Made by a program: the position numbers and the translations under genes. DNA of 58,008 bases from Candidatus Magasanikbacteria bacterium RIFCSPHIGHO2_02_FULL_48_18 (GTDB lineage: Bacteria > Patescibacteriota > Patescibacteriia > Magasanikbacterales > UBA922). Position 1 is the stretch's first letter, and each line of letters begins with the position of its first letter. The stretch covers positions 84,151 through 142,158 of the forward strand of contig MFQC01000003.1 in NCBI GenBank assembly GCA_001784285.1, read 5' to 3'. This document shows, piece by piece, positions 2,924 to 34,702 of this stretch. The notes under the pieces were generated by a model that ran no database searches, was not told where the DNA came from, and saw only the letters and a list, made by a program, of their open reading frames with translations.

Positions 2924-3634
2924 CTATCTATCGTCATCTATTATCAACTTTTGTGCGACATTATTGAGTGTGTTGCTTAGAGTGTCCTTTAGTGTATCAA
3001 TGTCTGTTTGCCACCCCTCTCCATCAAACCATTCTAAGCCCTTAAATTGCAGTTTATAGACATCCCCAGGTCGCTGAAAAGAACCTAAGTAAACATATTT
3101 CTTCCCTTGTTCTTTCGCCCAGAGAATCGCTTTGAGCATCATACCTATACCAACATTTGACAATTTACTATTAACTATTAACAATTGATAAAATGGGTAA
3201 CAGTAATGAAGGACGCTGTTATTTTCATAACAAATGGCGTAACCAATTGGTTCTGTGGCATTGAAATGATTGTAAACGAGAAAAATATTAAAGTTGGTTT
3301 TTGTTTCATCAGTCAACAATTCCTTTGCCTTGTTTGCGCTCAATGTGCCTGATCCAAATTTTTCAGTATAAAAATCTTTGGCTAGTTTGCCAATTTTCCA
3401 ATCGTAGTTGGGGAGAGGGAGGAGTTCAGTCTTCAATTCTAAACTCTCCGTTTTGCGGAGAATTCGTCGGTTTTCGCTTGTTAGATTAAATTTTTCTAGA
3501 TCAATTCGTAAACTTCGCGTTTGATTCATCACCCCTTTGTCTATGCGAGTAAAAACATAGCCCTCGTTGTAGAGGGTGGTGATTGTATCGGCGGAGAAAT
3601 CGGTAATTATTTTTTTGTTCCAAGAGAGGTACAT
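2924..3634 (-). CDS. Aminoacyl-tRNA-protein transferase-like (ATE_C / Bpt family)
   Basis: The C-terminal block GYAICYENNSVLHYCYPFY...GIGMMLKAILWAKEQGKKYVYLGSF....YKLQFKGLEWFDGEGW matches the Bpt/Ate1 core pattern (YLGY...YK..F.P.E). Start reassigned to ATG 3634 (MYLSWNKK) so that it no longer overlaps mraY. Confidence 0.65.
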   Translation of the reverse strand: MYLSWNKKIITDFSADTITTLYNEGYVFTRIDKGVMNQTRSLRIDLEKFNLTSENRRILRKTESLELKTELLPLPNYDWKIGKLAKDFYTEKFGSGTLSANKAKELLTDETKTNFNIFLVYNHFNATEPIGYAICYENNSVLHYCYPFYQLLIVNSKLSNVGIGMMLKAILWAKEQGKKYVYLGSFQRPGDVYKLQFKGLEWFDGEGWQTDIDTLKDTLSNTLNNVAQKLIIDDDR

Positions 3635-3648
3635 ACAGGCCTTCCTTT

Positions 3649-4779
3649 TTACAACAACGCAATCCAGATACCCAGAAGCACGGCTCCGCCGTGGATTACC
3701 CAAAAACGCATCACGGTTTTTTCTTCACTCCATCCGCGAAGCTCAAAATGATGATGAAGCGGCGCCATTTTGAAGATGCGGCGGCCGAGGAGGTGTCTTC
3801 CGAGGACTTGGATAATAACGCTTGTGAGTTCGATGTAAAAAATAAATCCTAAAAAAGGCAAGAGGAGCATTTTGTTGATGACGATTGCATTGATGGCAAG
3901 AAGCGATCCGAGGCCGAGCGAGCCCACATCTCCCATTTGAAACCGAGCCGGTTTGATATTGAAGTAGGTGTATGTAATGAGAGAACCAGCGGCGGTTGCG
4001 TTCAGAAAAGAAATTTCATGAAATCCCTCGAGCCAGCTCAAAACAGTTAAAGCGGAAAAAGTAATAATGAGCGAACCGCCCGCGAGTCCGTCCATCCCAT
4101 CGGCCACATTGACCGCGTTTGCGGTAAACATGACAAAAAATATAATAAGCGGAATAATCCACCAGCCGATGTACAGATACCCATCGAACGGAATAAAAAT
4201 TTCTCGCCAGCTGGTTCCGAGTTTGGAATAAATCCACCATGCAGTAATGGCGCCGGCAATGAATTGGAGGATAATTTTTTCATGGACATGAACGCTTTTG
4301 CCCGGGTGAGAACCAAGCCACAGAGACATGCGTTTAAATATGGACCATGGCAGTGTGAGGGCAAGCCAGATGCGTTGTTTCCAGTCTCGGTGGATTTTTA
4401 TAAGTCGGAGCACATGTCTGAGTTTGCGGATGCGGCGTTTATGCCCATACACGTGCATAACATCGTCAATGCCGCCGAGCATTGCCGAAAAAAGCATGAC
4501 CCCAATAGGGACCCATGTGAATTTTCTTTCCCAATTGAAAAGCATGGTAATAATGGCAACCACCAGAATCATCAGGAGTCCGCCCATGATAGGGACGCCT
4601 TGTTTGCTTTGTCTGGTCCCCATGCTTAACGTGGCATCGTATTCTCCTCGTCTGGTGAGTTTGTATGTATAGAGAAATTTGGTTAAGAGCGGCGCCAAAA
4701 AAAATGAAAAAATAGCCGAAAAAAGGCCATAGGAAATGGTTGTTTTAAGGAGAGAAAGCGATTCTTCCGGAATAATCAT
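3649..4779 (-). CDS. mraY: Phospho-N-acetylmuramoyl-pentapeptide transferase
   Basis: NAVNVADGMDGLAGG, MGDVGSLGLG and PLHHHFELRGWSEEKTV motifs, with multiple TM segments. Confidence 0.92.
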   Translation of the reverse strand: MIIPEESLSLLKTTISYGLFSAIFSFFLAPLLTKFLYTYKLTRRGEYDATLSMGTRQSKQGVPIMGGLLMILVVAIITMLFNWERKFTWVPIGVMLFSAMLGGIDDVMHVYGHKRRIRKLRHVLRLIKIHRDWKQRIWLALTLPWSIFKRMSLWLGSHPGKSVHVHEKIILQFIAGAITAWWIYSKLGTSWREIFIPFDGYLYIGWWIIPLIIFFVMFTANAVNVADGMDGLAGGSLIITFSALTVLSWLEGFHEISFLNATAAGSLITYTYFNIKPARFQMGDVGSLGLGSLLAINAIVINKMLLLPFLGFIFYIELTSVIIQVLGRHLLGRRIFKMAPLHHHFELRGWSEEKTVMRFWVIHGGAVLLGIWIALL

Positions 4780-6060: not shown

Positions 6061-6146
6061 GGGCGCGTCATACCTGCCTGCCGGCAGGCAGGTAATGGTA
6101 GTACTACGGTCTCCAACCCGGCCTTTAGGCCGGGCGATTCCTACCG
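6061..6146 (+). pseudogene. Degenerate tRNA-Trp-like copy disrupted by GC-rich palindromes
   Basis: Shares GGGCGCGTC, TAATGGTAGTACTACGGTCTCCAA and CGATTCCTACCG with the intact tRNA at 6224. It has a 20-nt insertion in the D-loop, its anticodon-3'/variable/T-stem-5' segment is replaced by a hairpin, and the acceptor 3' strand is missing. Confidence 0.7.
6071..6094. repeat. Perfect 24-nt palindrome TACCTGCCTGCC/GGCAGGCAGGTA
   Basis: Read directly from the sequence. Relative to the intact tRNA it is a clean insertion of CCTGCCTGCCGGCAGGCAGG between TA and TA. A second hairpin, CCCGGCC-TTTA-GGCCGGG, lies at 6117-6134. Confidence 0.9.
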
Positions 6147-6223
6147 AATCATATGTTTTATGTTTACATTCTTCTGAGTAAGAAAGATAAAAAATTCTAG
6201 ATGAAACTTTTAGAGAATTATAT

Positions 6224-6297
6224 GGGCGCGTCGTATAATGGTAGTACTACGGTCTCCAAAACCGTATGCGTAGGTTCGATTCCTACCGCGCCTGCCA
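6224..6297 (+). tRNA. tRNA-Trp (anticodon CCA), 3' CCA encoded
   Basis: Cloverleaf folded by hand: acceptor GGGCGCG/CGCGCCT, D arm GTAT..GTAC region, anticodon arm ACGGT-CTCCAAA-ACCGT, T arm GTAGG-TTCGATT-CCTAC, then GCCA. Confidence 0.9.
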
Positions 6298-7887
6298 CCG
6301 TGTAATGACAGAGGTCAAAGCCTCTGTTTTTACTTTTGTTGAGGCAAATTTGATTGGTTCTAACATTTTATATTCATCCTCCAGCGTTTTATATCCGTTT
6401 ATTATCGGCAACAGCCATTTGTGTACTGAAATATCCAGTTTTTGGTCTTTCAATAAAAAGTTCGAACCTAAACCAGTCAGTACATCTTTTCGCTCTTCAA
6501 TGCTTCCATTTTCAAAATGGTCTTGAGCATATCTGGCAAAGTGAAATACCTGCTCAGTGAGTTCCAGCCATTCTTCTGCTCGCTGTTCGGTTTCACGGAG
6601 CTCTTGCTGTAGTTTCTTGATCTGCCCCTGCAATACATCTCGCTCTTTTATGAACATATTATCGTCAATCAGCTCTCGGTAGCGCATTTTGGTGAGATTA
6701 TCCAGTTCCTTTTGTGCTTGTGTGATTGATTTGTGTTGCATTTCATAGACTTTGGAACGATCCACTATCTCTTTGTCATTGTCTTGATTCAAAGCCTCCA
6801 TCGCCCAGTCAAAAAACTCTGGGAGAATAGCCAATTTATCTATCCGTTCAAATATCAGGTTTTCTAAGGTTTTCTCATCTATGGATTTTCTTTGCGTACA
6901 CACTACATCTGTTTTTCTTCTGGTGCAGTGGTAATACGTGTAGTATCTGATTTCTCCTGTCTTTTTGATAAACTTCTTTTTCTTCTCGGCTGTAATTTGG
7001 CAACCACACTCACCACAACGGATCATCCCAGTGAACGCAAACGTATATTTCTTTGGTCTTGGTTTTCCTTTTCTTCCCAAAATTTCCTGTACTCGATCAT
7101 ACTCCTCGAGTGCAACCATTTTTTTGTGTTTGCCGACATATTCCACTCCATCGTATACGAGCACACCAGCATAAAAGATATTGGTGAAAGTACGATACAT
7201 CCCACTCACTGACATTGGTTTTCCTCCTGTTCGTTTTCTTTTTTTTGAACGAAATCCCCACTCATCGTTGAGCTTTGTGAGGACTTGGGGAACGGTATAG
7301 TTGCCCGTAAGCATGTAATCCCACGCTCTACGAATAAGATCAAAGCGTTCAGGATCGGGGATGATGGTATGGTTTTCGAGCTCATTCAAATAGCCAAGAG
7401 CCGCCATCCCAGGTCTCCAGCCATTTTTCACTTTGCAAAGGTTTCCTCGTTTTACATTCTTGCTCAAATCGAGGATAAACTGGTTTGCCATACCACTTTC
7501 AACGTTGAACAAAAGTACGTTATCTTCGGGCTTATATTCACGATCTATTGTTTGAATTGATTTTAGCCCACCTTGTTGTAGAAGCCATTGTACTTGTGCG
7601 CTGTCTATAGGATTTCTTGAAAGTCGATTGATCTGCCAGCAAAGTATGCCATTTGCTTCTCCCGCTTCAATTTTTTTCATCATCTCGTCAAAGACTGGAC
7701 GGTTGTTTGGTTTTTTTGCAGTCTTTGCTTCAGTATAAATATGTTTAATTTTTATATCCAAAGTCTTTGCGAGTTCTTTCAGTCGCCCCACTTGATCATC
7801 AATGGATTGCACCTGCCGATCTTCACTCTCCGATGACTTTCTGGAATAAAGGAAGTAGGTATATTTTTTATTGTCATTGTAATTCAT
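6283..7887 (-). CDS. Large serine recombinase (integrase)
   Basis: N-terminal resolvase domain (YLYSRKSSESEDRQVQSIDDQ, INRLSRN), a recombinase domain, the zinc ribbon CGECGCQ...YYHCTRRK..VC, and a C-terminal coiled coil. The last 5 codons plus the stop overlap the tRNA-Trp acceptor 3' strand. Confidence 0.9.
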   Translation of the reverse strand: MNYNDNKKYTYFLYSRKSSESEDRQVQSIDDQVGRLKELAKTLDIKIKHIYTEAKTAKKPNNRPVFDEMMKKIEAGEANGILCWQINRLSRNPIDSAQVQWLLQQGGLKSIQTIDREYKPEDNVLLFNVESGMANQFILDLSKNVKRGNLCKVKNGWRPGMAALGYLNELENHTIIPDPERFDLIRRAWDYMLTGNYTVPQVLTKLNDEWGFRSKKRKRTGGKPMSVSGMYRTFTNIFYAGVLVYDGVEYVGKHKKMVALEEYDRVQEILGRKGKPRPKKYTFAFTGMIRCGECGCQITAEKKKKFIKKTGEIRYYTYYHCTRRKTDVVCTQRKSIDEKTLENLIFERIDKLAILPEFFDWAMEALNQDNDKEIVDRSKVYEMQHKSITQAQKELDNLTKMRYRELIDDNMFIKERDVLQGQIKKLQQELRETEQRAEEWLELTEQVFHFARYAQDHFENGSIEERKDVLTGLGSNFLLKDQKLDISVHKWLLPIINGYKTLEDEYKMLEPIKFASTKVKTEALTSVITRWQAR

Positions 7888-8757: not shown

Positions 8758-10926
8758 TTACCCTCCACCCTCACTCACTATATCTTTTTCAGAGGAAACA
8801 GTGAGTTGATCTGTAGGGGTAATGAGTAGCTGTCTTTTGTCATCAGGGTCTGCATCCTGCGAGATAAGACCAGCAGTCTCAAGCATCGGAATTATTTGCT
8901 GTCTCATCTGCCAATCTGGCAACATACGTCCGTACACTTGGTAATGCTTTTTCAATATCTCTTTACGTGTAATACCTGCCTTTTCCTCGGCAAGGCCATA
9001 TAGGTTTTTTTCTTCATACGCTGGCACAATAACATCTTTGTATAGATCATAGACATACGGCGGAAGATTGTACTCTTGACTTTCAGATATTTTATCCCAT
9101 AATTTCAATGCTTCCGCAAAGTCTTCCTGCGTTGCGACAATTGTCGATCCCTCTCGTTCACGAAACCAAACATTCAGAAGCGCAAAGATTTTTGTGAGTC
9201 CCATAAGTCTACCAATGTCTCGCTGATGGCGTGGTTTGAGCTTGGATCGTTTTGAGAAAAATTCCTGCTCAATGATTTCTGGATTTTCAATCCGTATTTC
9301 ATCTATTGCTTCGTCTTTGATTGCCTCGATTCTTTTTTTCAAGAGTATTCGTTCGGGGTCTGCATTGAGGTTTTTTGCGTATGCTTCATTATCAGAATCT
9401 TTTTTGATTTTTTCCTGTATGGCAAAGCGGAGTTTTTCTTGGCTCGTTTGTGGTGAGAGAAGAATAAATCGAGTACTTTCTTGTTCATCAATCTCCAATC
9501 CTGCACTACAGAAGATTACAGCGGGATACCCACGGAGAATCACGGTCTTGGTTGCATTTCCACCTTTTTGATTTTTATCCGTTATCTTTGAAATCATTTC
9601 CTTTTGATCATGCGACAAGAGCGAACGTAAGCGTTCCAGTAAGCTATTGTGTGGTTGATCCAAAAAAATGAGTATCTTCCGTGAGAGGTCAACGAGCATA
9701 GTATTTGTTTCTTTGTCATAGTCGCCTTGTTCGTGAAAAAAGGCTTTTGGTGAACAATCACCGAGTTTCATCACGTCTTCATTTGGAAACAGGGTTGATA
9801 CTTCCATAGGAATAAAACTTTTTCCTGTGGAAGATGGTGCGTTGAAGCTCAAATTGAATTGAGATTGTTCGGTATATGCGGAAAGCGCACAAAGAAACGT
9901 AATGAGTTTGTTTTCTTCGTCTTTTTTTATCGTAAGCCCCAGTACACGGATAATATCTTCGGAAGTCAGGAGTTTGAATTGTGATGTATCAATGGGAAAT
10001 TTACCTGCTACTTGTTTTGAACATTGGTACATGAGCTCGTCTGGATTGCCATTGTATTTGGTTATGTAGTCCGTGATGTCCTTTCCATCTGTCATGCGTT
10101 CGGGCAAGGTGATTTTGTATATGGCTTTTTTGGGTAATTGGGTATCAAGTGAAGCAATAAGTTTTTCTGCTCCTTTTTCACCAGCGTCATCTTTGTCGAA
10201 GCATATATGAATCTTTTTCAAGTTTTTCAAGTGTGCGATCCATTCTTCTTTGAATGTACCAGCTCCTGCCGTGGAAGTAATTGCGGGTATGCCGATACTG
10301 GAGAGAAGCATGCTATCAAATTCACCCTCACATATCACGATCTCACCGTTTCCTTTGAGCATGTCCCAGCCAAAGAGTGTGGCTGTACTCCCTGCGGGGT
10401 AAAAACGGTATTTGTCTGTTTCTTTGGGTTTATTTGGGTCTAGGCGGAGCTTGAAGAACGCAAAATCACCATCTTGGTTTTTGATGGGTATGGTAATCCA
10501 GTTCATGCCATAGAATTGCCCCCAGCCGAGTTTGTAATGGGCTATGAGAGCGTCTGTAAGGCCTCTGGCGTGCAAATATGTCCGTATGTGGTCTGGTAGT
10601 GCCTCGTGGCATTGTTCCACCAGATCAACCGAAATCCTACCTTTTCCTACCTTTTTTGGTTTCGTGGTTTTTCGTGGAGAAATAGATATATCATCTATCG
10701 TATCTCCAAGGTGTTTGGCAAGCGTAACGATATTGCCAGTCTCACCGCATTTTTTGCAATTGTATTGTCCTGTTTCGGCGTGAAAATACAAGTGTGCTTC
10801 GTTTGGTCTGCTGTCTTTGTCGCAATCATTGAATACGCATTTGGCAACAAGCTCTCCGTTTCGTTCGGTAAATGCTATGCCTTTTTGCGTTAGATATTCT
10901 GTGATTGCAATTGTTTGAAATTCCAT
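8758..10926 (-). CDS. Primase-helicase-like replication protein (zinc finger + Toprim + P-loop NTPase)
   Basis: Zinc finger C..C...HLYFH..GQYNCKKCG. Toprim motifs VICEGEFDS and CFDKDDAGEKGA. Walker A FNAPSSTGKSF in the C-terminal half. Confidence 0.8.
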   Translation of the reverse strand: MEFQTIAITEYLTQKGIAFTERNGELVAKCVFNDCDKDSRPNEAHLYFHAETGQYNCKKCGETGNIVTLAKHLGDTIDDISISPRKTTKPKKVGKGRISVDLVEQCHEALPDHIRTYLHARGLTDALIAHYKLGWGQFYGMNWITIPIKNQDGDFAFFKLRLDPNKPKETDKYRFYPAGSTATLFGWDMLKGNGEIVICEGEFDSMLLSSIGIPAITSTAGAGTFKEEWIAHLKNLKKIHICFDKDDAGEKGAEKLIASLDTQLPKKAIYKITLPERMTDGKDITDYITKYNGNPDELMYQCSKQVAGKFPIDTSQFKLLTSEDIIRVLGLTIKKDEENKLITFLCALSAYTEQSQFNLSFNAPSSTGKSFIPMEVSTLFPNEDVMKLGDCSPKAFFHEQGDYDKETNTMLVDLSRKILIFLDQPHNSLLERLRSLLSHDQKEMISKITDKNQKGGNATKTVILRGYPAVIFCSAGLEIDEQESTRFILLSPQTSQEKLRFAIQEKIKKDSDNEAYAKNLNADPERILLKKRIEAIKDEAIDEIRIENPEIIEQEFFSKRSKLKPRHQRDIGRLMGLTKIFALLNVWFREREGSTIVATQEDFAEALKLWDKISESQEYNLPPYVYDLYKDVIVPAYEEKNLYGLAEEKAGITRKEILKKHYQVYGRMLPDWQMRQQIIPMLETAGLISQDADPDDKRQLLITPTDQLTVSSEKDIVSEGGG

Positions 10927-11857: not shown

Positions 11858-12595
11858 TCAACGCAAAGTTACATTTCCCCGATTCAATACAAATTCATGG
11901 TGACTAAGTCCCGTCTTCTTTCTTATCTTTTTTACTACCTCATTTATTTTTGCCGTACTAGTTGTCTCTTTTGCTGTTTGTTTCCTCGTTTTACCCGCTT
12001 TACTGTTAGACAATATTTGTTGGACATCTGGCACTTCTGTATCTCGGGCTATATCTAATATATTCTCAACATCTTTTCTCGCGATCCTCTTACCTCTATT
12101 TTTATAACATTCGTTGAATAATTTGTACTCATAACCACCATCTGTGAGCTTAAATTTTTTTTCATCATTGTTTCCGGCCCCTGATTCTGAATCATAACAC
12201 AATCTGTTTATTGCTCGATCGTTTCTTGTTTTCTCGATTCCTGTCTTCTTTCCCATATGTCCTTCCTTTTGGAAGTCATTTCTTAGAATATTTCTTATTG
12301 CGTTTAAAGAACTTAGAGATGGAGAAAAAAATTTGATTCCCTCATTAAATAAAATAGAAAGCGAAGTTAAAGACTCAAGCGGAGGTATGGCAATTGGAAA
12401 AAAAATAGGAAACTTCCGAGACAATCCATATAAAATTCTATGTACCTCCTCAGAGCTCATGCCATCGATACTGCCCAAGTAAAATTCTAACCTTCCACCT
12501 TCTGGCACGAGATGAGTTTGGTCTATTAACTCATCAAGAACTAACAGGACTTTCCGTGAATATTGCATAGTAATTTTCATATTAATTTCTCCCAT
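11858..12595 (-). CDS. Hypothetical protein (245 aa), candidate element regulator
   Basis: Sits divergently from the operator-bearing promoter region at 12608-12642 and has a basic C-terminal half. No family recognised. Confidence 0.5.
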   Translation of the reverse strand: MGEINMKITMQYSRKVLLVLDELIDQTHLVPEGGRLEFYLGSIDGMSSEEVHRILYGLSRKFPIFFPIAIPPLESLTSLSILFNEGIKFFSPSLSSLNAIRNILRNDFQKEGHMGKKTGIEKTRNDRAINRLCYDSESGAGNNDEKKFKLTDGGYEYKLFNECYKNRGKRIARKDVENILDIARDTEVPDVQQILSNSKAGKTRKQTAKETTSTAKINEVVKKIRKKTGLSHHEFVLNRGNVTLR

Positions 12596-12607
12596 TTTAG
12601 CAAAAAC

Positions 12608-12636
12608 TTGAAAAAAAACAAGAGATAAGATACTAT
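12608..12636 (+). promoter_or_regulatory. Sigma70-type promoter
   Basis: TTGAAA (12608-12613), 17-nt spacer, TACTAT (12631-12636). Confidence 0.5.
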
Positions 12637-12642
12637 CTTATC
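12624..12642. promoter_or_regulatory. Perfect 9-1-9 dyad operator overlapping the -10 element
   Basis: GATAAGATA-C-TATCTTATC read directly. It is centred on the TACTAT -10 hexamer. Confidence 0.6.
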
Positions 12643-12793
12643 AGACAATTCACGCCTAAACTCTATAGTTCGCTATACGGCATGGCACTCATATCCGTGC
12701 AAGGTAGTAAGCTCTCCGCTTAGTTGCCTTGCACGGTCGTATCTGGAAACAGATACGGGTGGCCGTAAGGCCATCACAAGCGGGGAGCTTTTT
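12643..12793 (+). ncRNA. Candidate structured small RNA of unknown class (~150 nt)
   Basis: Helix A is 12695-12704/12727-12736 (10 bp, perfect). Hairpin C is 12738-12757 (8 bp, GAAA loop). Hairpin D is 12758-12775 (7 bp, GTAA loop). Helix B is 12709-12721/12778-12790 (13 bp, one G-U) followed by TTTTT. The G-U pairs and GNRA loops are valid only on the + strand, and there is no ORF. Confidence 0.5.
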
Positions 12794-12844
12794 GTTGTAT
12801 ATGCTAAAAAACCCTAAACAAAGCAATATTTTGTTGGTTTGCTA

Positions 12845-12873
12845 TTGACAAAATGGATTTAATATGATAGATT
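12845..12873 (+). promoter_or_regulatory. Sigma70-type promoter for the secreted-protein genes
   Basis: TTGACA (12845-12850), 17-nt spacer, TAGATT (12868-12873). Confidence 0.5.
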
Positions 12874-12892
12874 GGTTTGTTTACTTTTCACT

Positions 12893-13711
12893 ATGAAATA
12901 TCTCTTAATTCTAAGTACAATTTTATTCTTAGGAGTTGGGTGCAATCAGACAGCCCCATCTTCAGATGCGGCCATAAAGGAACAAACGATCAAAGAGCTC
13001 ACAAAGCAGGTTGAAGAACTGAAAACATTGGTTGTGACTTCAACACCAGAAGCAGTGACAAGTACGGTAGAGGTGGTCAAGCCTACCAAGATTGAGCCGA
13101 TATTGCCGGTGGTGGCTCCAGTAAAACCCGTAACAAAGCCTGTGGTTCTACCGATCGTGAAACCGATCGCACAGCCGATAGTGCAACCAGAGCAGAAGAT
13201 TGAGGAACCAAAAGATGATTCGCTTGAAAAGATTGCTGAATTGGAAAAACAACTTGCAGCGCAAAAGGCAGAAAAAACAGCGTTAGAAAAACAAAAACAG
13301 TTAAAAGCAGAACAAGATGCTGCATTTTTGAAAGCATTAAATGATATAACCGAATATACGAATGAAAAAGCTAAATCTGATTTGGAAAAAATGTACCAAG
13401 AAGCGGGAATTGACCCATATTTTCAATACGGCGGACAACCTATAAATAATCAGCCAATAAGTCTACCGAAAAGCAATCTTGATTATTTCATCAAACAACA
13501 AGAAGAACAATTCAAATACGACTCACTACAAAAACAAGTTAATCAACTTAAATGGGATCAAGAAATGGATGAAATGGACTCCTACCTAGATAATATAAAA
13601 CAAAACAATAATTCGTGGAATACTGATTACTCATGGAAACCAAAACTGCTCCCAAGCATAAATAATAACGATTATTTCAATTCTCCAGGTGGAATTGGTG
13701 CTCTTTGGTGA
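12893..13711 (+). CDS. Lipoprotein with proline-rich KP(V/I) repeats and a coiled coil
   Basis: Lipobox LFLGVGC after MKYLLILSTI. The repeat region is VKPTKIEPILPVVAPVKPVTKPVVLPIVKPIAQPIVQP. The coiled-coil segment LEKIAELEKQLAAQKAEKTALEKQKQLKAEQ is heptad-like. Confidence 0.65.
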   Translation: MKYLLILSTILFLGVGCNQTAPSSDAAIKEQTIKELTKQVEELKTLVVTSTPEAVTSTVEVVKPTKIEPILPVVAPVKPVTKPVVLPIVKPIAQPIVQPEQKIEEPKDDSLEKIAELEKQLAAQKAEKTALEKQKQLKAEQDAAFLKALNDITEYTNEKAKSDLEKMYQEAGIDPYFQYGGQPINNQPISLPKSNLDYFIKQQEEQFKYDSLQKQVNQLKWDQEMDEMDSYLDNIKQNNNSWNTDYSWKPKLLPSINNNDYFNSPGGIGALW

Positions 13712-13760
13712 AAATCTTAATTAAACTGAAATTTATGTTATGGACCATAGTATTCGCTAT

Positions 13761-14468
13761 ATGAAAAAAATCACCATTGGTTTTCTTGTCGGCATCTGTA
13801 TTGCCATCGCAGGTTCAACCTTCGCGTCATCTGTTTCTTCGTTTTCATTATCAGAGACGCCGTCATATATCCACAAAAGTATTATGGAGTTGCAAAACCA
13901 AGTTAAAGCATTGCAAGATGCTGTTTCAAATTTTTCGCTGATTCCTGGACCAAAGGGTGACAAAGGAGATCAGGGAATTCCTGGTATCCCAGGGAAGTCT
14001 TTATGGGTGATAGATGCAAATGAGGTTAAGGTGGGTATTTTAACAGACTATATTAACCACAATAATGACGCTGGCCAACCAATACAGCTTTACATCCCCG
14101 AACAAAAGAAGATGGTCTCAATAAATTTGATGACTGGGAAGTATATTATTTGTAATGGTTGTCAAGACCTAACAATACAAGAATTTACCTATCGTTTTTA
14201 TAAATCAAGTGATTGTACAGGCCAAGCATACAGTAACTTAGGACTATCACCTGAAAAGGTTATTGCTATCAAAGGAGCTAGTCCACAATTTTTTACACCC
14301 AATGGGCCAATAGAACAGAACGTAGTATTTAATAGTGCTCTAAATATTCAAAGCGGCCAACCATTTTGTAGCAAACCTGGCAGTAGTCCCGAAGACTTCG
14401 TCGTCCCAATCGAACCAATCACCCTCCCCACCTTTACAGGCCCACTTCATTTGCAATATAGTGAGTAG
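13761..14468 (+). CDS. Secreted protein with a short collagen-like triple-helix segment
   Basis: Signal peptide MKKITIGFLVGICIAIAGSTFASS and six G-X-Y triplets (GPKGDKGDQGIPGIPGKS), then a Cys-containing globular C-terminal domain. An alternative start lies at 13740. Confidence 0.65.
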   Translation: MKKITIGFLVGICIAIAGSTFASSVSSFSLSETPSYIHKSIMELQNQVKALQDAVSNFSLIPGPKGDKGDQGIPGIPGKSLWVIDANEVKVGILTDYINHNNDAGQPIQLYIPEQKKMVSINLMTGKYIICNGCQDLTIQEFTYRFYKSSDCTGQAYSNLGLSPEKVIAIKGASPQFFTPNGPIEQNVVFNSALNIQSGQPFCSKPGSSPEDFVVPIEPITLPTFTGPLHLQYSE

Positions 14469-14560
14469 AGGTGGGTGGTAAACGTCTTTTTAAGAAAAGT
14501 GGTTGGTAATCCACTGGTGGTTATCGTACAGTGTCTTGTTGTGCAACGTCCTCGAGGCGA

Positions 14561-14985
14561 TTACGCAAGGCTGGCGGTAAAACTTGGGATATAGACGTAT
14601 CCCTTTTCCTTCTGTAAAATAGTTCCAACATCCTCCACGATGTTCTGCTCCAAGGGAAACTGCTTGAACTTGCGATAGTGTTCAAACGGTTCCTTCGCTA
14701 CAACGTGCAGTTTTTTCTCCCTCAAAGAGAGGTTCGATGAGACGGTGACAATGACACGGCGCCTCGTGGCATCGTCCCCATTTGCAAACGAGCATTTCGC
14801 TTCAGTTGCGAACAAAAGAGACTGCCGTAAGGGTTCGAGAAGTCGTTCGGTATTACCGAGCGATTTTCGCTTTTCTTCAATCAGAAGGAGCTGCCTTTCG
14901 AACCTTTCCCGCTCAGCTTCATACTCATCCGTCGTGAGCACACCATCAATGCAGAGGTCGCGGACTCGGCAAGGGCAACATGCCA
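14561..14985 (-). pseudogene. C-terminal remnant of a second large serine recombinase (frameshifted/truncated)
   Basis: RDLCIDGVLTTDEYEAERERFERQLLLIEE...EPLRQSLLFATEAKCSFANGDDATRRRVIVTVSSNLSLREKKLHV parallels RELIDDNMFIKERDVLQGQIKKLQQELRE...ELTEQVFHFARYAQDHFENGSIEERKDVLTGLGSNFLLKDQKLDI of the 6283-7887 recombinase. The upstream part is in another frame and there is no catalytic domain. Confidence 0.6.
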
Positions 14986-15208
14986 GCCAGGAACTTCACT
15001 GCGCGGAAGAGCCCGTCCGCTACCCGCAACGAGAATCATTCGTCGTTTCCTATAGTTGGGGATCATACCATTGAATCGTATCCCGTACCCGCAACCTGTC
15101 CTCTTCCTCCTGCGATCCTGTCTCCAACGCGGCCGCCGTCGGCCGCTTGCGACTGCGGTGAGCGAAAAATTTCGTTGGGTTCTGAGGGAACCTGCCCAAA
15201 ACGTGAAG

Positions 15209-15238
15209 AAGCCACGCATCGGGTAATGCGTGGCTTTT
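15209..15238. terminator. Strong hairpin terminator (11-bp stem, A-tract/T-tract flanks)
   Basis: AAGCCACGCAT-CGGGTA-ATGCGTGGCTT followed by TT on the + strand. The T-run is better on +. Confidence 0.6.
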
Positions 15239-15601
15239 GAGGGTGGTCGGGCAGGGTGGTGTTGACAGACACCAGTCCTGACGGACGCAACGAAGGTGAA
15301 TAGGGCACCCGCGACGCGATCCTCCCGACCCCACGAGTCCTTCCGGAACCGTGGGCTTGAGAGCATCTCCCCGGGTTCTCCGCCTGTCTTACCAATGCCG
15401 CCATAGATAGCGCGGGACGATGTGAGGCCTCCATCCCACCCCGCCTGGTCGGTCAGCGCGTCGCGCGCTGAACCAGGGTTCGAACTCGGCAGTATCCCAC
15501 ATTATTGGCATATCTGTCAAGACCGGGATGTGGATGGCTGAATTCTATCCGTACTGCCCCACCCTTGAGAAAGAAGCATGGTTTGGCTACACTGAGCGAC
15601 T

Positions 15602-15884
15602 ATGCGAAGACTTACATACTTTGAAAGGCAAATAATTGAAAGTGGCATGCGGGTGGGCAAGGCAGTCCGAGCGGTAGCTCGGTGTCTTGGTCGGGATCAC
15701 CGAGTGATCCAAAGGGAGGTGGATCGGAATACTTGTGGAGGAAGAATGTATGAAGCAAGGATAGCCGAAAGGTTAGCGGAAAAAAGAGAAAAAAAGAGAC
15801 ATATACCAAAGTTAGAACGGTCAGAGAATGAAATTTTGAGAGAGTTTGTGATTGAAAAATTGAAGGAAGATTTGAGTCTACAAA
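15602..15884 (+). mobile_element. IS30-family transposase N-terminal HTH fragment (truncated, no catalytic domain)
   Basis: MRRLTYFERQIIESGMRVGKAVRAVARCLGRDHRVIQREVDRN...Y.A..AE matches the IS30 HTH_38 N-terminus. The reading frame then degenerates at about 15885. Confidence 0.65.
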
Positions 15885-15926
15885 TATGGTTATTCGGCAT
15901 TCAGGTATGGTTATTCGGCATTCAGG
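15885..15926. repeat. Perfect tandem duplication of a 21-bp unit
   Basis: TATGGTTATTCGGCATTCAGG occurs twice, at 15885-15905 and 15906-15926, at the junction of the IS30 and NYN fragments. Confidence 0.95.
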
Positions 15927-16106
15927 GTATTGCTCGCAAAGCTCTCTCTGGACGGCTTCGAGCACGGTGAGGCTCGGTCCACACTGGTTCCCGAGGTGAG
16001 CAATGTTACTTCCATCAATAATAAAATAGCTCAGCAGTCCAGCCTCCATTCGCGTAAAATCCTTATACGATGGTTTACCGCCTGAATGTATTTGCCAAGA
16101 ATCCAT
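15885..16106 (-). pseudogene. N-terminal fragment of a NYN/PIN-like ribonuclease
   Basis: YFIIDGSNIAHLGN....PSLTVLEAVQRELCEQYPECRITIFVD resembles the NYN pattern (vIDGsNVa....g.eV.vfvD). The remainder of the 164-aa ORF is antisense to the IS30 fragment and looks nonsensical. Confidence 0.45.
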
Positions 16107-16231
16107 CGTATGGTATTATTGGAACACCAAGAGTCAAGCTAATCCTTAATTACCACTATATGCAACGAGAGCGGGGACCCAAGCAAGTCCTTTCGTCCAA
16201 TTATAGCGAACAGTCCAGGGGCGTTGAGCCG

Positions 16232-16474
16232 ATGGCTCGTGATACTGCGGCAGATATCTTGCGAGAGGTGGCCCGTGTTGGAGAATTTGGCGGTGACATG
16301 ACGCCTAGGCCACACGCAATTGGTCGAGCACTCTTTCGAATTCTCAGTAACAATGGTGCTCCAGATGAGTATAATCTCGCTGAACTCACACGAGGTTTCC
16401 TTCACCAGCCTTCCGAACTGCTTGTGGAAGATCCACCGTCACACGATGGCGAGGAAGACGATGACGATGACTAG
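16232..16474 (+). CDS. Hypothetical GC-rich ORF with a poly-acidic tail (uncertain)
   Basis: MARDTAADILREVARVGEF...DGEEDDDDD. It lies in GC-rich DNA where long ORFs arise by chance. Confidence 0.3.
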   Translation: MARDTAADILREVARVGEFGGDMTPRPHAIGRALFRILSNNGAPDEYNLAELTRGFLHQPSELLVEDPPSHDGEEDDDDD

Positions 16475-16966
16475 CGTAAAGAGGATTGATAGACGATTGA
16501 TAGATCTGGTTTACTATCGGCCGATGTGCAATTGCTGAACAATCCTTCTAACGTGTCGCCGGACTGCCCAGAGTGCGAAACCAGTTGCCATCGATGTTGT
16601 GTTGCACATCCAATCTCGTGGACCCGGTATCTCGTTGTAGCAAGTGTGTCAGGATCGGTGGGTTCCTTCTCTCTGAACCCGTACTTCAGCTCATCCAGTC
16701 TGCCGTCCCAGAGGACGGCGGTGAGGGCGACACGGATTTTCCAAGGGTGGTCAATTGGGTCTCAACCCATTCCCACCACCTCCAGTTGAAAGGAATCTGG
16801 TTTTCAAGGCCGCGTGGAGCATGACTACCAGTTGGGTTCTAACGCCATTCCAATCGGCCTGCACAGTAATAAATCGGCCGTTTTTGGCCATGAGCCGGCA
16901 TCCTCGCCGTCGAATTCGATCCGAATTTTTCGTAAAACGATTACAAGAAGATTTTTGTTAGATTGT

Positions 16967-21761: not shown

Positions 21762-23084
21762 ATGAAACGTCCCTTTCTTTTGTTTTTTACTTTTGTCTGC
21801 CTTGGCATTATTGGCTTTTTTTGGTGGCGAAATTCCGGTGTTCTTCTTTTGGATGCTGGAGCGAGGGCCGATGGCATGGGTTTCATTGTTTTTGGCAGAC
21901 TTTTTGGTCTTTTGGCTGTTTTTTGTATTCTCGTACAGCTTTTATTGATTGGCCGTATCAAATGGATAGAAAATACTATTGGATTTGATAAACTTGCGCA
22001 TCTGCATCATCTCAATGGTTTTTTAGCCCTATTTTTTATTCTCCTCCACCCATTTTTTATTATTTTCGGATACAAAGGGCTTTCCGATTCTTCTTTTGTC
22101 CATCAATTTTTTACACTGCTGTCGCTTGATGACGTTCTTGGCGCGGTGATCGGGTTTGTATTGTTTGCCTTGGTCGTCACATTTTCTATTGTGGCTGTTG
22201 CAAAACGACTACGCTACGAAGTATGGTATGGCATTCATGTGTCTGTCTATGCCGCAATTCTTTTTTCGTATGGGCATCAGTTGGAATTGGGAGGGGATTT
22301 TCTGTCTCAGCCTTTTTTTGTGCTTTTTTGGTACGCGCTCTACGCGTTTGTATTTACCAATTTTGTCGTTTTTCGATTTATAATGCCGGTATGGCGATAC
22401 GCCAAGCACCGCTTTGTGGTGGATCTAATTGTAAAAGAAGCCGATGGCGCGCATTCGGTGTATATCACTGCCAAACATCTTGACGCGTGGAAAGCAAAAC
22501 CCGGGCAATTTATTATTGTCCGATTTTTTCAAAAAGGATTTTGGTGGGAAGCACATCCGTTTTCGCTCTCTTCTCCGGTGAAAGGATCCATTCGGATTAC
22601 CGCCAAAGCATTGGGCGACTTTACCAAAAAAATTCCATCGCTTTCGTCCGGAACCAAAGTGCTTATTGACGGCCCGCATGGCGGCTTTACGCCAAATGAA
22701 AAAACAAAAAAGAAGGTTTTGCTTGTCGCGGGCGGCATTGGAGTTACGCCGCTTCGAACCATTTCGGAAGAATTATTGCAGAAGGGGTATGACGTGGCGT
22801 TTGTGTATTCCACCAAAGTAAAAGAAGAATCCGTGTTCAATCAAGAATTTATAAAACTCCAAGAACAATTTACCCAACAATTTCATTTTGTTCCGGTCTA
22901 TACGCGCGGAGAGCCGGCACAAAAAATTGATGAAACATTTTTCATGAATTTTGTGGATGATCTGAAAGAACGGGAAGCCTTTATTTGTGGTCCAAAACCG
23001 ATGATTGAGAGTATTGCGCTCATGTTAGAGCGTCTTGGATTATCAAAAAAGGATATTCATTTTGAAAAGTTTTCGTTTTCGTAA
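21762..23084 (+). CDS. Ferric-reductase-like transmembrane domain fused to an FNR-type FAD/NAD(P)H-binding module (NOX-like)
   Basis: Six TM segments with conserved His residues. FNR-type motifs include PGQFIIVRF, HPFSLSS and VLLVAGGIGVTPL. Confidence 0.8.
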   Translation: MKRPFLLFFTFVCLGIIGFFWWRNSGVLLLDAGARADGMGFIVFGRLFGLLAVFCILVQLLLIGRIKWIENTIGFDKLAHLHHLNGFLALFFILLHPFFIIFGYKGLSDSSFVHQFFTLLSLDDVLGAVIGFVLFALVVTFSIVAVAKRLRYEVWYGIHVSVYAAILFSYGHQLELGGDFLSQPFFVLFWYALYAFVFTNFVVFRFIMPVWRYAKHRFVVDLIVKEADGAHSVYITAKHLDAWKAKPGQFIIVRFFQKGFWWEAHPFSLSSPVKGSIRITAKALGDFTKKIPSLSSGTKVLIDGPHGGFTPNEKTKKKVLLVAGGIGVTPLRTISEELLQKGYDVAFVYSTKVKEESVFNQEFIKLQEQFTQQFHFVPVYTRGEPAQKIDETFFMNFVDDLKEREAFICGPKPMIESIALMLERLGLSKKDIHFEKFSFS

Positions 23085-23208
23085 TTTAAAGTACTTACTC
23101 AGTAAACTCAGTCTGCTCTGTTGAAGATACTTTTTTCAAACTATATTCAATCGAGCCCTCCTTTCCTCCTTGTGTTTTGGGCTCGGGTTATTGCTCGAGG
23201 TGGCCCGC

Positions 23209-24015
23209 CTACCGAAGCGAGCCGATGAACCTCCCGACTACCTCGTTGAACCGATTTGCCTCCTCGAGGAATGGGCAGTGGTTTGAATTGCCAAAAAGCT
23301 CAAGGCGCGCGTTCGGCATCTGCCGGACGATGTACTCTCCGATGGCCGTCGGCACGAGCTTGGGCTCGGCTGCGCCGAAGCACACGAGAGTCGGGATGTT
23401 CACCGCCGGCAAGACGCCACGGCAGTCGAGCACCGTCTGGTCGAAGAAGATCGCCGCGGCGATCGACGCCGGAGGCTTGCAGGCCTCAGCGACCATCCAG
23501 GCCGACTCTTCCTCAGTCGGCCCGCGGTGGAACATGCTGAGAAAGAAACCACGCACCACCCCCTCTTGGTTGTCTTGCAGCCCGGACATGATCTCCCGGA
23601 GGATTTTCATGTCCACACCCCCATGCTGCCAACCGGGGGCAGCATACTCGTAGGGGGACTGCTCGACGATAACTGTGCCTTGCACGTTGGCAGTTCCGAA
23701 CTGCCGAAGGTACTCCCAAATGACAAGTGCCCCCATTGACCAGCCCACGAGCACGGGGCGCGAGAGGCCAAGGGCCTCGATGAAGCCCCCAAGGTCGCGG
23801 GCGTACTGGAATACGGTGTTTCCGGTTTGTGTCTTCTCGGAGCATCCGTGGCTCCGGAGGTCGAGGGCGATCGCCCGGTGTTGTTGTCCAAAGTGCGTCA
23901 GTTGTTTTTCGAAGAACCGGCCGCTCATCCACACCCCGTGGATGAAGATAACCGGCTGTCCGCTGCCACTCTCATCGTAAAAGAACCCAGTGCCATTGAA
24001 GTTTACGGTCGGCAT
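23209..24015 (-). CDS. Alpha/beta hydrolase (GC-rich island)
   Basis: FIHGVWMSG (HG oxyanion block) and nucleophile elbow GWSMGA. Markedly GC-rich codon usage. Confidence 0.8.
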   Translation of the reverse strand: MPTVNFNGTGFFYDESGSGQPVIFIHGVWMSGRFFEKQLTHFGQQHRAIALDLRSHGCSEKTQTGNTVFQYARDLGGFIEALGLSRPVLVGWSMGALVIWEYLRQFGTANVQGTVIVEQSPYEYAAPGWQHGGVDMKILREIMSGLQDNQEGVVRGFFLSMFHRGPTEEESAWMVAEACKPPASIAAAIFFDQTVLDCRGVLPAVNIPTLVCFGAAEPKLVPTAIGEYIVRQMPNARLELFGNSNHCPFLEEANRFNEVVGRFIGSLR

Positions 24016-24054
24016 TTCTGTCTCCTCGGTCGAAGTCCTTCCCCCCGAACGTTC

Positions 24055-25173
24055 CTACTCCCTGCAGTATCGGTACGCGGCGGTGGATGCGAAGTTCATG
24101 CCGTTGCTTTGGAAGACCTCACGAATCGTCTCGGCGTTCCTCTTCCACCGGTCTCCACCACGTGGGTGTTCGTCACCACCCATTGCATCGGTGAAGAAGC
24201 AGTGGGGCGTTGTATCTTCGAGCCGGTACAGTCCGGCCGTGACGCCCTGGCGCAGAAGCCACTTGTGATACTCTACAAGGGCACGCGCCGGAAGGATCAG
24301 GTCTCCTGGGGTGTAGATGATGTCCGTCTTGCCCCGCCAACAGCCGTCCTTGTCCATCGCCTTCTTCAGGGGGCTCGGCCCACCGAAGAATCGGTAGATA
24401 AAAAGGAAGAAGGCAAAGACCATGACGCTGTCCGCTTTCAGCCCCTTGTGATATTCACGGAAGGCCTCCCCTGGCATGTCGTGTCTCGCCCCTCCGAGGG
24501 CATGAACGTACGGGTTTTTTCCATCCTTGACCCACGGCCTCCAGTACCCGGTAAAAAGCCACCTGGCTCCCCACCTCGGGAGGACATAGAGAATCCTCCT
24601 TGAGAAGAGGCCCCCCACCAAGGTCAGCATGCCCCAAAGGAACCCCAAGAGTCCCCCGTATGCCCAGAACCTCCAGTTGAGGAGGATCACGCCCCACCTC
24701 TCGGGGACGGGCGTGAATTGGATGAGGGGGGTGGAGCCGTGTTGCAGTACTGATTCGCACGCTCCGCCGCTATGAACCAGCCTGTTCAGGACCTCCCGCA
24801 AGATCGCCGCGCCCGCCGAGTGACCAAAAAGACAAATCTTGTTGGTCGTCGGCACGATCGGGTTTATCTGCCGGATGTCGTTGAGGTGGCGAACGATCTG
24901 CCAGACCTCGTCGACCTGCTTAGTGAAGGTCTGCCACGGGCTGCACTCGCTGCCCCTCCGGCAGATCACCACGATCTGGTCAGTGGTGTCCTGGATGCAT
25001 CCCTCGATGAGGGGCTTGACCAGTCCCCCCTCTTCCTGGTTGTAGCCAGCCAGACCGATCCAGGTCTGTTTTGTCGTTCCGTGGCGCGACCAGACAGTGC
25101 GGGTCACGGACTTCCCATTAACATTTACCACGATCTGATGCTCCACGAACCCCATCATCTCGAGCGTCTTCAT
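24055..25173 (-). CDS. Alpha/beta-hydrolase-like protein with a hydrophobic segment (GC-rich island)
   Basis: GHSAGA nucleophile-elbow-like motif and the central hydrophobic stretch WGVILLNWRFWAYGGLLGFLWGMLTLVGGLF. Confidence 0.5.
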   Translation of the reverse strand: MKTLEMMGFVEHQIVVNVNGKSVTRTVWSRHGTTKQTWIGLAGYNQEEGGLVKPLIEGCIQDTTDQIVVICRRGSECSPWQTFTKQVDEVWQIVRHLNDIRQINPIVPTTNKICLFGHSAGAAILREVLNRLVHSGGACESVLQHGSTPLIQFTPVPERWGVILLNWRFWAYGGLLGFLWGMLTLVGGLFSRRILYVLPRWGARWLFTGYWRPWVKDGKNPYVHALGGARHDMPGEAFREYHKGLKADSVMVFAFFLFIYRFFGGPSPLKKAMDKDGCWRGKTDIIYTPGDLILPARALVEYHKWLLRQGVTAGLYRLEDTTPHCFFTDAMGGDEHPRGGDRWKRNAETIREVFQSNGMNFASTAAYRYCRE

Positions 25174-34555: not shown

Positions 34556-34702
34556 GTTTCACCTCTCTTGTTGTGGAACAAAAAAAGAGCGACCCCAACA
34601 TGGGGCCCTCCTTCGTTGCACAAGTCTTTCATGCCTTGGATATTTTGTCAATAATTTGCTTTTTTAGCTAAAATCGCTATACTCAGACCATTATTTCTCT
34701 CT

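Follow-up and report, generated by a model that had tools for sequence, protein, structure and literature searches.

A structured RNA was located on the forward (+) strand of a 58,008-nt stretch of contig MFQC01000003.1 from Candidatus Magasanikbacteria bacterium RIFCSPHIGHO2_02_FULL_48_18 (the whole stretch is called the window here, and all coordinates are positions within it). The RNA lies in a small serine-integrase/primase element and is a new member of the known LOOT family (Rfam RF03000), not a new class. Comparison with other family members adds three points: LOOT RNAs end in a tail helix (helix B) that would act as their own terminator and that clashes with the helix at the base of hairpin P2 (helix A), LOOT is linked to large serine recombinases, and at some loci the region where the next gene starts is complementary to one helix-A strand. 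Our preferred reading, held with moderate confidence, is that LOOT terminates itself and, as a regulatory leader or small RNA, gates the rightward transcription of its element.

In an Rfam 15 scan of the window, positions 12653-12775 (+) matched RF03000 over its full length (model positions 1-121 of 121) with a score of 80.8 bits against a gathering threshold of 46.4 (E = 1e-13), on the + strand only. Given this full-length match above threshold, the RNA was assigned to a known family; no Rfam family besides LOOT was found at E <= 1 in 12400-13000. An initial annotation, made from the letters alone, had matched the region to no riboswitch, ribozyme or small RNA (sRNA) class, which the Rfam scan corrects. 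Its proposal of a structured RNA valid on the + strand only agrees with the strand of the Rfam match and with the conserved U-G wobbles described below. The structure exceeds chance expectation, as the + strand fold had a z-score of -6.6 with 0/200 dinucleotide shuffles as stable (z = -4.5 for the - strand).

The LOOT motif first came from a 2017 survey of intergenic regions that reported 224 candidate structured RNAs (Weinberg et al., PMC5737381), and the Rfam 14 paper presents it as a metagenome-based family (PMC7779021). No function for LOOT is stated in the main text of the survey, whose supplement carries the motif description (PMC5737381), or in the Rfam 14 paper (PMC7779021). The window RNA itself derives from uncultured environmental bacteria in groundwater and soil metagenomes.

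The core of the window RNA is like that of the Rfam model, with a P1 domain holding a CCUAAAC/GCAUGG loop, a long P2 hairpin, a P3 hairpin with a GAAA loop and a P4 hairpin with a GNRA loop. P1 (12653-12687) consists of an outer helix (12654-12656/12684-12686) and an inner hairpin (12661-12680), and its internal loop lies within GCCUAAAC at 12654-12661 and GGCAUGGC at 12679-12686. After a linker, P2 (12695-12736) is closed by helix A, in which CCGTGCAAGG (A5', 12695-12704) pairs with CCTTGCACGG (A3', 12727-12736) over a perfect 10 bp, and encloses a 22-nt apical region (12705-12726). The adjacent hairpins P3 (12738-12757; 8 bp, CGTATCTG/CAGATACG, GAAA loop at 12746-12749) and P4 (12758-12775; 7 bp, 12758-12764/12769-12775, GUAA loop at 12765-12768) follow. 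The Rfam model stops at the last base of P4. In the window and across the family the RNA continues with a conserved 3' tail, composed of the 3' strand of helix B (B3', 12778-12790, AAGCGGGGAGCUU) and, directly after the helix, a U-tract (12789-12797, UUUUUGUUG) in which the RNA would end. The 5' strand of helix B (B5', 12709-12721, AAGCUCUCCGCUU; alignment columns 80-98) lies in the apical region of P2, so that AAGCTCTCCGCTT pairs with AAGCGGGGAGCTT over 13 bp with one U-G pair and is followed by TTTTTG.

The initial annotation had described helix A, helix B and the two GNRA hairpins at these same positions, and all four were present; its helix A corresponds to the base of LOOT P2 and its hairpins to P3 and P4. 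It had overlooked the conserved 5' hairpin P1. From the sequence, the RNA would span roughly 12644 to 12795, for a length of ~145-150 nt.

Homologs were collected with sequence patterns that left helix A, the apical region, the tail and the flanks unconstrained. Two loose pattern scans yielded mostly noise (the first pattern hit 238 loci, of which 2 were LOOT at the first filter, with L156 and L190 recognized later). Tighter patterns on P1 and P3 gave 9 LOOT loci on predicted viral contigs, and a metagenome scan with P1 and P3 patterns returned 120 stretches, nearly all of them LOOT. The resulting family set comprised 116 distinct RNAs with a complete tail (median pairwise identity 55%, no pair >90%). 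All 20 homolog loci that were re-scanned exceeded the Rfam LOOT threshold, at 51-100 bits. The 116 RNAs were aligned using MAFFT without structural input, and alignment-free swap tests were run alongside. Hosts in a small genome sample were one Gottesmanbacteria genome, one contig binned as Methanofastidiosum and two unclassified metagenome-assembled genomes (MAGs), and blastn against the sequenced phages of INPHARED gave no match. A contig from an unclassified MAG (L119) carried two convergent LOOT genes ~560 nt apart, at 3618-3738 (+) and 4295-4412 (-), which exceed the Rfam threshold at 78 and 82 bits.

Helix B is a conserved feature of the LOOT family beyond the Rfam model. Across the 116 RNAs, the duplex between the apical region and the RNA's own tail averaged -25.2 kcal/mol, compared to -15.1 kcal/mol when tails were swapped between RNAs and -11.7 kcal/mol after shuffling. 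In the alignment, helix B comprised 14 pairs, of which 13 changed on both sides, and 92.3% of their cells held standard pairs; one pair, for example, was CG in 54, UA in 45 and UG in 15 sequences, and another was GC in 43, CG in 38, UG in 18 and AU in 11. The covariation score was 0.544 versus 0.254 in column shuffles (0/500 reached the observed value), and it fell to 0.05-0.19 when the partner was slid by 1-3 columns. RNAalifold recovered the helix unprompted. Two conserved wobbles place U in the 5' strand and G in the tail (101/116 and 74/116 sequences have UG), which fits an RNA transcribed from the + strand. A T-run of at least 3 followed helix B in 109 of the 116 homologs. In the window, helix B (13 bp, -22.4 kcal/mol as a duplex, then UUUUUG) has the G+C-rich helix and U-tract of an intrinsic terminator.

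The remaining helices were conserved as well. P1 was the most conserved domain, in which C3, C4, T5, A6, A7, C9 and GCATGG were invariant among the homologs. P3 had an invariant GAAA loop, with 98.9% of cells paired and changes on both sides in all 8/8 pairs. Compensatory changes, the check that the initial annotation had proposed, were abundant and occurred in every helix.

The Rfam model draws an 8-bp tip on P2, with which the tail helix B competes. In the window this tip is reduced to 5 bp, a weak local hairpin made by B5' (UAAGC/GCUUA), and cmscan marks three non-standard pairs. Over the family, the local apical hairpin of the model averaged -5.5 kcal/mol and was 67% paired, far weaker than helix B.

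A subset of homologs (for example L287, L344, L351, L285 and L275) carried a segment ~4-55 nt past helix B that is complementary to the 5' half of the B3' strand. Such a segment would put the U-tract in the loop of a hairpin. The corresponding signal across the family was weak (-12.5 versus -11.0 kcal/mol, p = 5e-5). No enrichment of trans-antisense targets of either helix-B strand was detected in the same locus relative to swapped controls (p about 0.2), and a near-copy of 17 nt inside the primase gene (10849-10865) was within chance.

Helix A was conserved as a helix and hypervariable in sequence. It measured 9-14 bp in 113 of the 116 RNAs, with 106 distinct 5' strands in the 116 sequences and all four Watson-Crick pair types at most positions. 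The duplex of an RNA's own strands averaged -15.8 kcal/mol, versus -3.3 kcal/mol for swapped strands. G-U pairs were many in P3, P4 and helix B and nearly absent from helix A (at most 3/116 per position). Possible reasons for this near absence are that selection favors a helix A as stable as it can be relative to helix B, or that its strands have another pairing partner.

The four strands run in the order A5'-B5'-A3'-B3' (12695-12704, 12709-12721, 12727-12736 and 12778-12790). In most RNAs the A5'-B5' linker is 0-3 nt and the B5'-A3' linker 0-4 nt, and the 13-17 bp of helix B take up most of the loop. Given linkers of only 0-3 nt, full helix A and full helix B clash and can hardly form together, by a geometric argument made without a three-dimensional model. 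By the same argument, either ~7-8 bp of helix B form as a classical pseudoknot on an intact helix A, or A and B alternate. The initial annotation had offered a pseudoknot or mutually exclusive alternatives from the strand order, and both helices covary across the family. In an H-type pseudoknot, strands follow the S1-S2-S1'-S2' order, with the loop of a hairpin paired to a strand further 3'; LOOT has this order, but its 0-3 nt linker appears geometrically too short to cross a 13-17-bp helix B. When each state was folded as a nested structure, the B-state, in which helix B closes a junction around P3 and P4, lay below the A-state, in which helix A forms and the tail is free, in 107 of the 116 RNAs, by a mean of 4.8 kcal/mol.

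LOOT was shown to travel with serine-integrase mobile elements. A large serine recombinase was found within 6 kb in 46/116 loci, and in 25/32 of the loci with at least 2.5 kb of sequence on both sides. Recombinases upstream of LOOT lay on the opposite strand in 33/38 cases and those downstream on the same strand in 12/12, at distances ranging from 35 nt to 5 kb. The upstream gene was divergent in 69/108 loci, and the next downstream gene was on the same strand in 78/100 loci, often 0-60 nt past the U-tract. Upstream neighbors were enriched for recombinases, helix-turn-helix proteins of the Cro/C1, MerR and excisionase types, ParB and methylases. Downstream neighbors were a mixed cargo of methylases, restriction enzymes, peptidases, secreted proteins and proteins without assignment: 100 downstream proteins fell into 50 Pfam families of at most 2 members each, and BLAST clusters of adjacent proteins had at most 3 members. 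Transfer RNA (tRNA) genes were seen within a few kb of LOOT in L174, L241, L248, L156 and L284, in keeping with integration at tRNA genes or with tRNAs encoded by the elements themselves.

A search of each locus for copies of the helix-A strands, meant to test them as attachment (att) sites, returned exact 10-12 nt copies of the helix-A 5' strand just past the terminator. An A-rich linker plus the A5' strand recurred 8-31 nt past the U-tract in 15 of 106 loci (L266, L344, L301, L383, L368, L311, L302, L312, L333, L366, L327, L275, L316, L298 and L248), where ~1 was expected from swapped controls; because some of these loci share the same helix A, the independent cases are nearer 11 or 12. The next ATG began no more than 4 nt before or 8 nt past the copy's end. 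This makes the A3' strand complementary to the next gene's start region. The adjacent ATG opened a substantial open reading frame (ORF) in 13/15 loci, with no Shine-Dalgarno sequence between copy and ATG, and many of the products had signal-peptide-like or transmembrane-like N-termini. In these loci the copy, of the form AAAA plus the helix-A 5' strand, occupies the place usual for a Shine-Dalgarno sequence. Both the reciprocal control (A5' against the downstream region) and the upstream control (A3' against the upstream flank) were negative. An explanation of the helix-A strands as att-site copies or another DNA site was rejected, given that recurrent copies were found only at the start of the next gene.

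These features can be joined in one mechanism, in which helix B and the U-tract would form LOOT's own intrinsic terminator, termination itself being deduced from the sequence. Helix B would nucleate on the loop that P2 presents and release a discrete ~150-nt RNA with its 3' end locked into the fold. The all-Watson-Crick helix A and the longer, wobble-weakened helix B would constitute a tuned two-state switch, and the state of this switch would set the outcome between a stop at the U-tract and read-through to the rightward genes. The A3' strand, freed by the opening of helix A, may in addition block translation of the next gene in part of the family, in cis or in trans, a translational layer that would act much like the c4 RNA of phages P1 and P7. 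The window copy would carry the terminator layer only.

The c4 antisense RNA of the P1/P7 ImmI region lies upstream of its target in the same direction and carries a short variable segment that is complementary to the next gene's ribosome-binding region. This segment also pairs with another copy of the target sequence, in or near the RNA, and c4 is cut out by RNase P. The triad of A5', A3' and start region in 15/106 LOOT loci is c4-like. In contrast, LOOT shares no sequence or structure similarity with c4 (no match to the Rfam c4 family at E <= 1) and appears to be self-terminated, and the window copy is without a complementary start-region site. Given that it is seen in 15/106 loci and not in the window, the resemblance is one of mode for part of the family and does not amount to membership.

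The CI RNA of satellite phage P4 is a small RNA from the operon leader of an integrase/primase-type element; its seqB pairs with both seqA and seqC, its action is tied to premature termination, and it controls the replication operon. LOOT B3' similarly has two partners, B5' upstream and a weakly pairing segment immediately after the U-tract, but the two RNAs show no homology and the window LOOT points away from the primase/integrase block. Riboswitch and attenuator platforms are like LOOT in having two covarying, mutually constraining helices, one of them ended by a U-tract, in front of a same-strand gene. LOOT differs from them in having no consistent class of regulated gene and no known ligand or binding protein. 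Its helices A and B also share no nucleotides, so that their clash is steric, unlike that of terminator/anti-terminator platforms.

An extension of the c4 comparison, which we consider quite unlikely, would make LOOT the immunity or gating RNA of widespread serine-integrase elements in uncultured bacteria, including the Candidate Phyla Radiation (CPR). The pair of a hypervariable, all-Watson-Crick helix A and a helix B acting as pseudoknot-forming terminator would then be a bistable, element-specific switch, the freed A3' strand a silencing address for the element's own rightward genes, and the helix-A sequences specificity groups comparable to P1/P7 heteroimmunity.

Several observations weigh against LOOT as a self-terminating gate. 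Helix B is not a compact hairpin with a short loop, as 56 nt (A3', P3 and P4) lie between its strands, and it was not called in a terminator scan of the window, which passes over it because of this 56-nt loop. The window RNA is an exception in the nested folding, with its A-state at -60.3 kcal/mol and its B-state at -56.0 kcal/mol. The downstream gene in the window is preceded by a separate promoter-like site at 12845-12873, and no complementary start-region site was found in the window, where the best duplex between A3' and the downstream region reached -4.1 kcal/mol; given both of these, gating may matter little at the window locus. Across the family, start-region complementarity is limited to ~14% of loci. 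Rfam types LOOT as 'Gene; sRNA' and not as cis-regulatory. The window sequence was seen in DNA metagenomes only and was absent from the metatranscriptomes of the same studies; for the homolog loci L292 and L283, a look for RNA runs found none listed. Lastly, the homologs were drawn by sequence pattern and so represent a subset of the LOOT family, and ORF calls at their loci were crude (the longest ORF with any start codon).

Among the alternatives, the most serious is that LOOT is a stable trans-acting RNA, or part of a ribonucleoprotein, that acts through the P1 loop and the GNRA hairpins, with helix B a structural pseudoknot doubling as an ordinary terminator and without regulation of neighboring genes. 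We judge this possible and on balance unlikely. The Rfam type, the great diversity of the neighboring genes, the separate promoter of the downstream gene in the window and the two convergent copies in L119 are all in keeping with it, as is the placement of the most conserved bases in loops and junctions (CCUAAAC, GCAUGG and GAAA), as in RNAs that bind proteins or ligands. However, the downstream same-strand gene is often too near the U-tract to have its own promoter, and the A3' strand matches the next gene's start region in 15/106 loci. No protein family was adjacent often enough to be a dedicated partner, and complementary targets elsewhere in the loci were not found.

An improbable alternative is a riboswitch, in which a small molecule or ion would be bound by an aptamer made of P1, helix A, P3 and P4, with helix B and the U-tract as the terminator and helix A as the anti-terminator. 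The architecture is suggestive, as a conserved structured domain precedes a terminator and contains that terminator's 5' strand, in front of a same-strand gene, and helices A and B look energetically balanced. Against this, the downstream genes have no metabolic or transport theme (as reflected in the spread over Pfam families noted above), the setting is that of mobile elements, and the family has an invariant terminator, unlike riboswitch platforms, which usually vary.

Conservation at the level of DNA, with the P2 palindrome serving as a protein-binding site (a recombinase att site or an origin) and not as an RNA helix, is very improbable. It would account for a helix A that is purely Watson-Crick and hypervariable and for the co-occurrence of LOOT with large serine recombinases, but many G-U pairs, each possible in the RNA of a single strand, occur in P1, P3, P4 and helix B, and both the Rfam match and the better fold are on the + strand. 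LOOT is moreover intact inside an apparently integrated element and so is not a split attP; its distance to the recombinase varies from locus to locus, and copies of helix-A strands elsewhere occur only at the start of the next gene. The chance that a conserved small ORF or mere coincidence explains the region is negligible: ORFs of 34-45 aa do overlap it in the window, but stops interrupt every frame of both strands in 81/116 homologs, and homolog lengths are spread over the residues modulo 3 (47, 38 and 31) with no multiple-of-three pattern, which together exclude a small ORF, and coincidence would leave both the compensatory changes and the covariance-model E-value of 1e-13 unaccounted for. 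The initial annotation, which had itself raised a conserved small ORF as an alternative, described the region as a ~150-nt ORF-free stretch; the intergenic gap in fact runs from 12596 to ~12892 (~300 nt) and those ORFs overlap it, none of them conserved.

LOOT has stood in Rfam for years with neither a known function nor a named host. The window gives it a defined setting, in the divergent-promoter region of a serine-integrase/primase element by tRNA-Trp in a bacterial chromosome. If the three points from the family comparison hold up, an orphan motif would become a regulator of mobile-element genes. The Rfam model would benefit from an extension of ~25 nt.

The promoter-like site of the window LOOT lies at 12608-12636 (+), with a -35 hexamer TTGAAA (12608-12613), a 17-nt spacer and a -10 hexamer TACTAT (12631-12636). 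It was present as the initial annotation had reported, with 9/12 consensus matches; alone it is weak evidence, because this AT-rich region holds 6 promoter-like sites versus 2.1 in shuffles. Based upon this site, we infer that transcription starts near 12643-12645. The -10 hexamer ends 17 nt before P1, within a family-wide zone 14-30 nt upstream that is enriched for -10-like hexamers. A family promoter at a fixed distance from P1 was considered and rejected, as only this broad enrichment was found.

A perfect palindrome of 9+1+9 (12624-12642, GATAAGATA-C-TATCTTATC) spans the -10 hexamer. This 19-bp palindrome was unique in the window, with 0 expected in shuffles, and holds -10-like hexamers on both strands (TACTAT and TAGTAT), and is a candidate operator, in line with the operator control proposed in the initial annotation, that could serve both divergent promoters. 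Operator palindromes as a trait of the LOOT family were rejected, given that upstream of other LOOT genes only a mild enrichment was observed. The second promoter-like site, between LOOT and the downstream gene (12845-12873, +), is stronger (TTGACA-17-TAGATT with TG, 10/12 matches). Just past the U-tract and upstream of this second site, within 12803-12839, AAAAAACCCTAAAC resembles the P1 motif CCUAAAC and is followed by an imperfect palindrome (12816-12839).

The element that carries LOOT is small and extends from tRNA-Trp (6224-6297) to ~14.5 kb. Its leftward block (- strand) begins with the divergent 245-aa gene (11858-12595) and continues through three small genes, one of which encodes DUF5659, a Toprim-type DNA primase (8758-10926; Toprim_2; phrog_47, E = 1.5e-31) and a 219-aa gene to the large serine recombinase, or integrase (6283-7887; Resolvase, Recombinase and Zn_ribbon_recom; phrog_95, E = 1e-65), which abuts tRNA-Trp. 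Two genes follow LOOT on the + strand (12893-13711 and 13740-14468), with signal-peptide-like N-termini that predict secreted products. Neither these two genes nor the 245-aa gene had a Pfam or PHROG match. The location of LOOT, in the divergent-promoter region of an integrase/primase element, bears out the initial placement of the region next to a divergent gene of the element. No direct repeat of the tRNA-Trp 3' end was found to mark the right end of the element, and its boundary near 14.5 kb is therefore undefined. The flanks contain ordinary chromosomal genes, including Mur ligases, an MraY-type transferase, DnaK, MetK, a CCA-adding enzyme and a penicillin-binding protein.

Just to the right of the element, the region 14470-16500 has a G+C content of 54% (versus ~42% for the window) and overlapping ORFs on both strands. 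It had no Pfam, PHROG or Rfam match and contains an exact 21-nt tandem duplication at 15885-15926. To the left, a degenerate second copy of tRNA-Trp was observed at 6062-6150, 143 nt upstream of the real one. It has the 5' end in common with the real gene, as well as a 24-nt block (6093-6116 = 6236-6259), and is broken up by two G+C-rich hairpins, CCTGCCTGCCGGCAGGCAGG and CCCGGCCTTTAGGCCGGG. An earlier integration could have left this copy behind, or it could be a tRNA gene that was disrupted. Elsewhere in the window, two further islands are G+C-rich (23000-25000 and 33000-34600; 56-63% G+C) and hold ordinary genes, for an alpha/beta hydrolase and an OPT-family oligopeptide transporter; horizontal acquisition may account for these islands.

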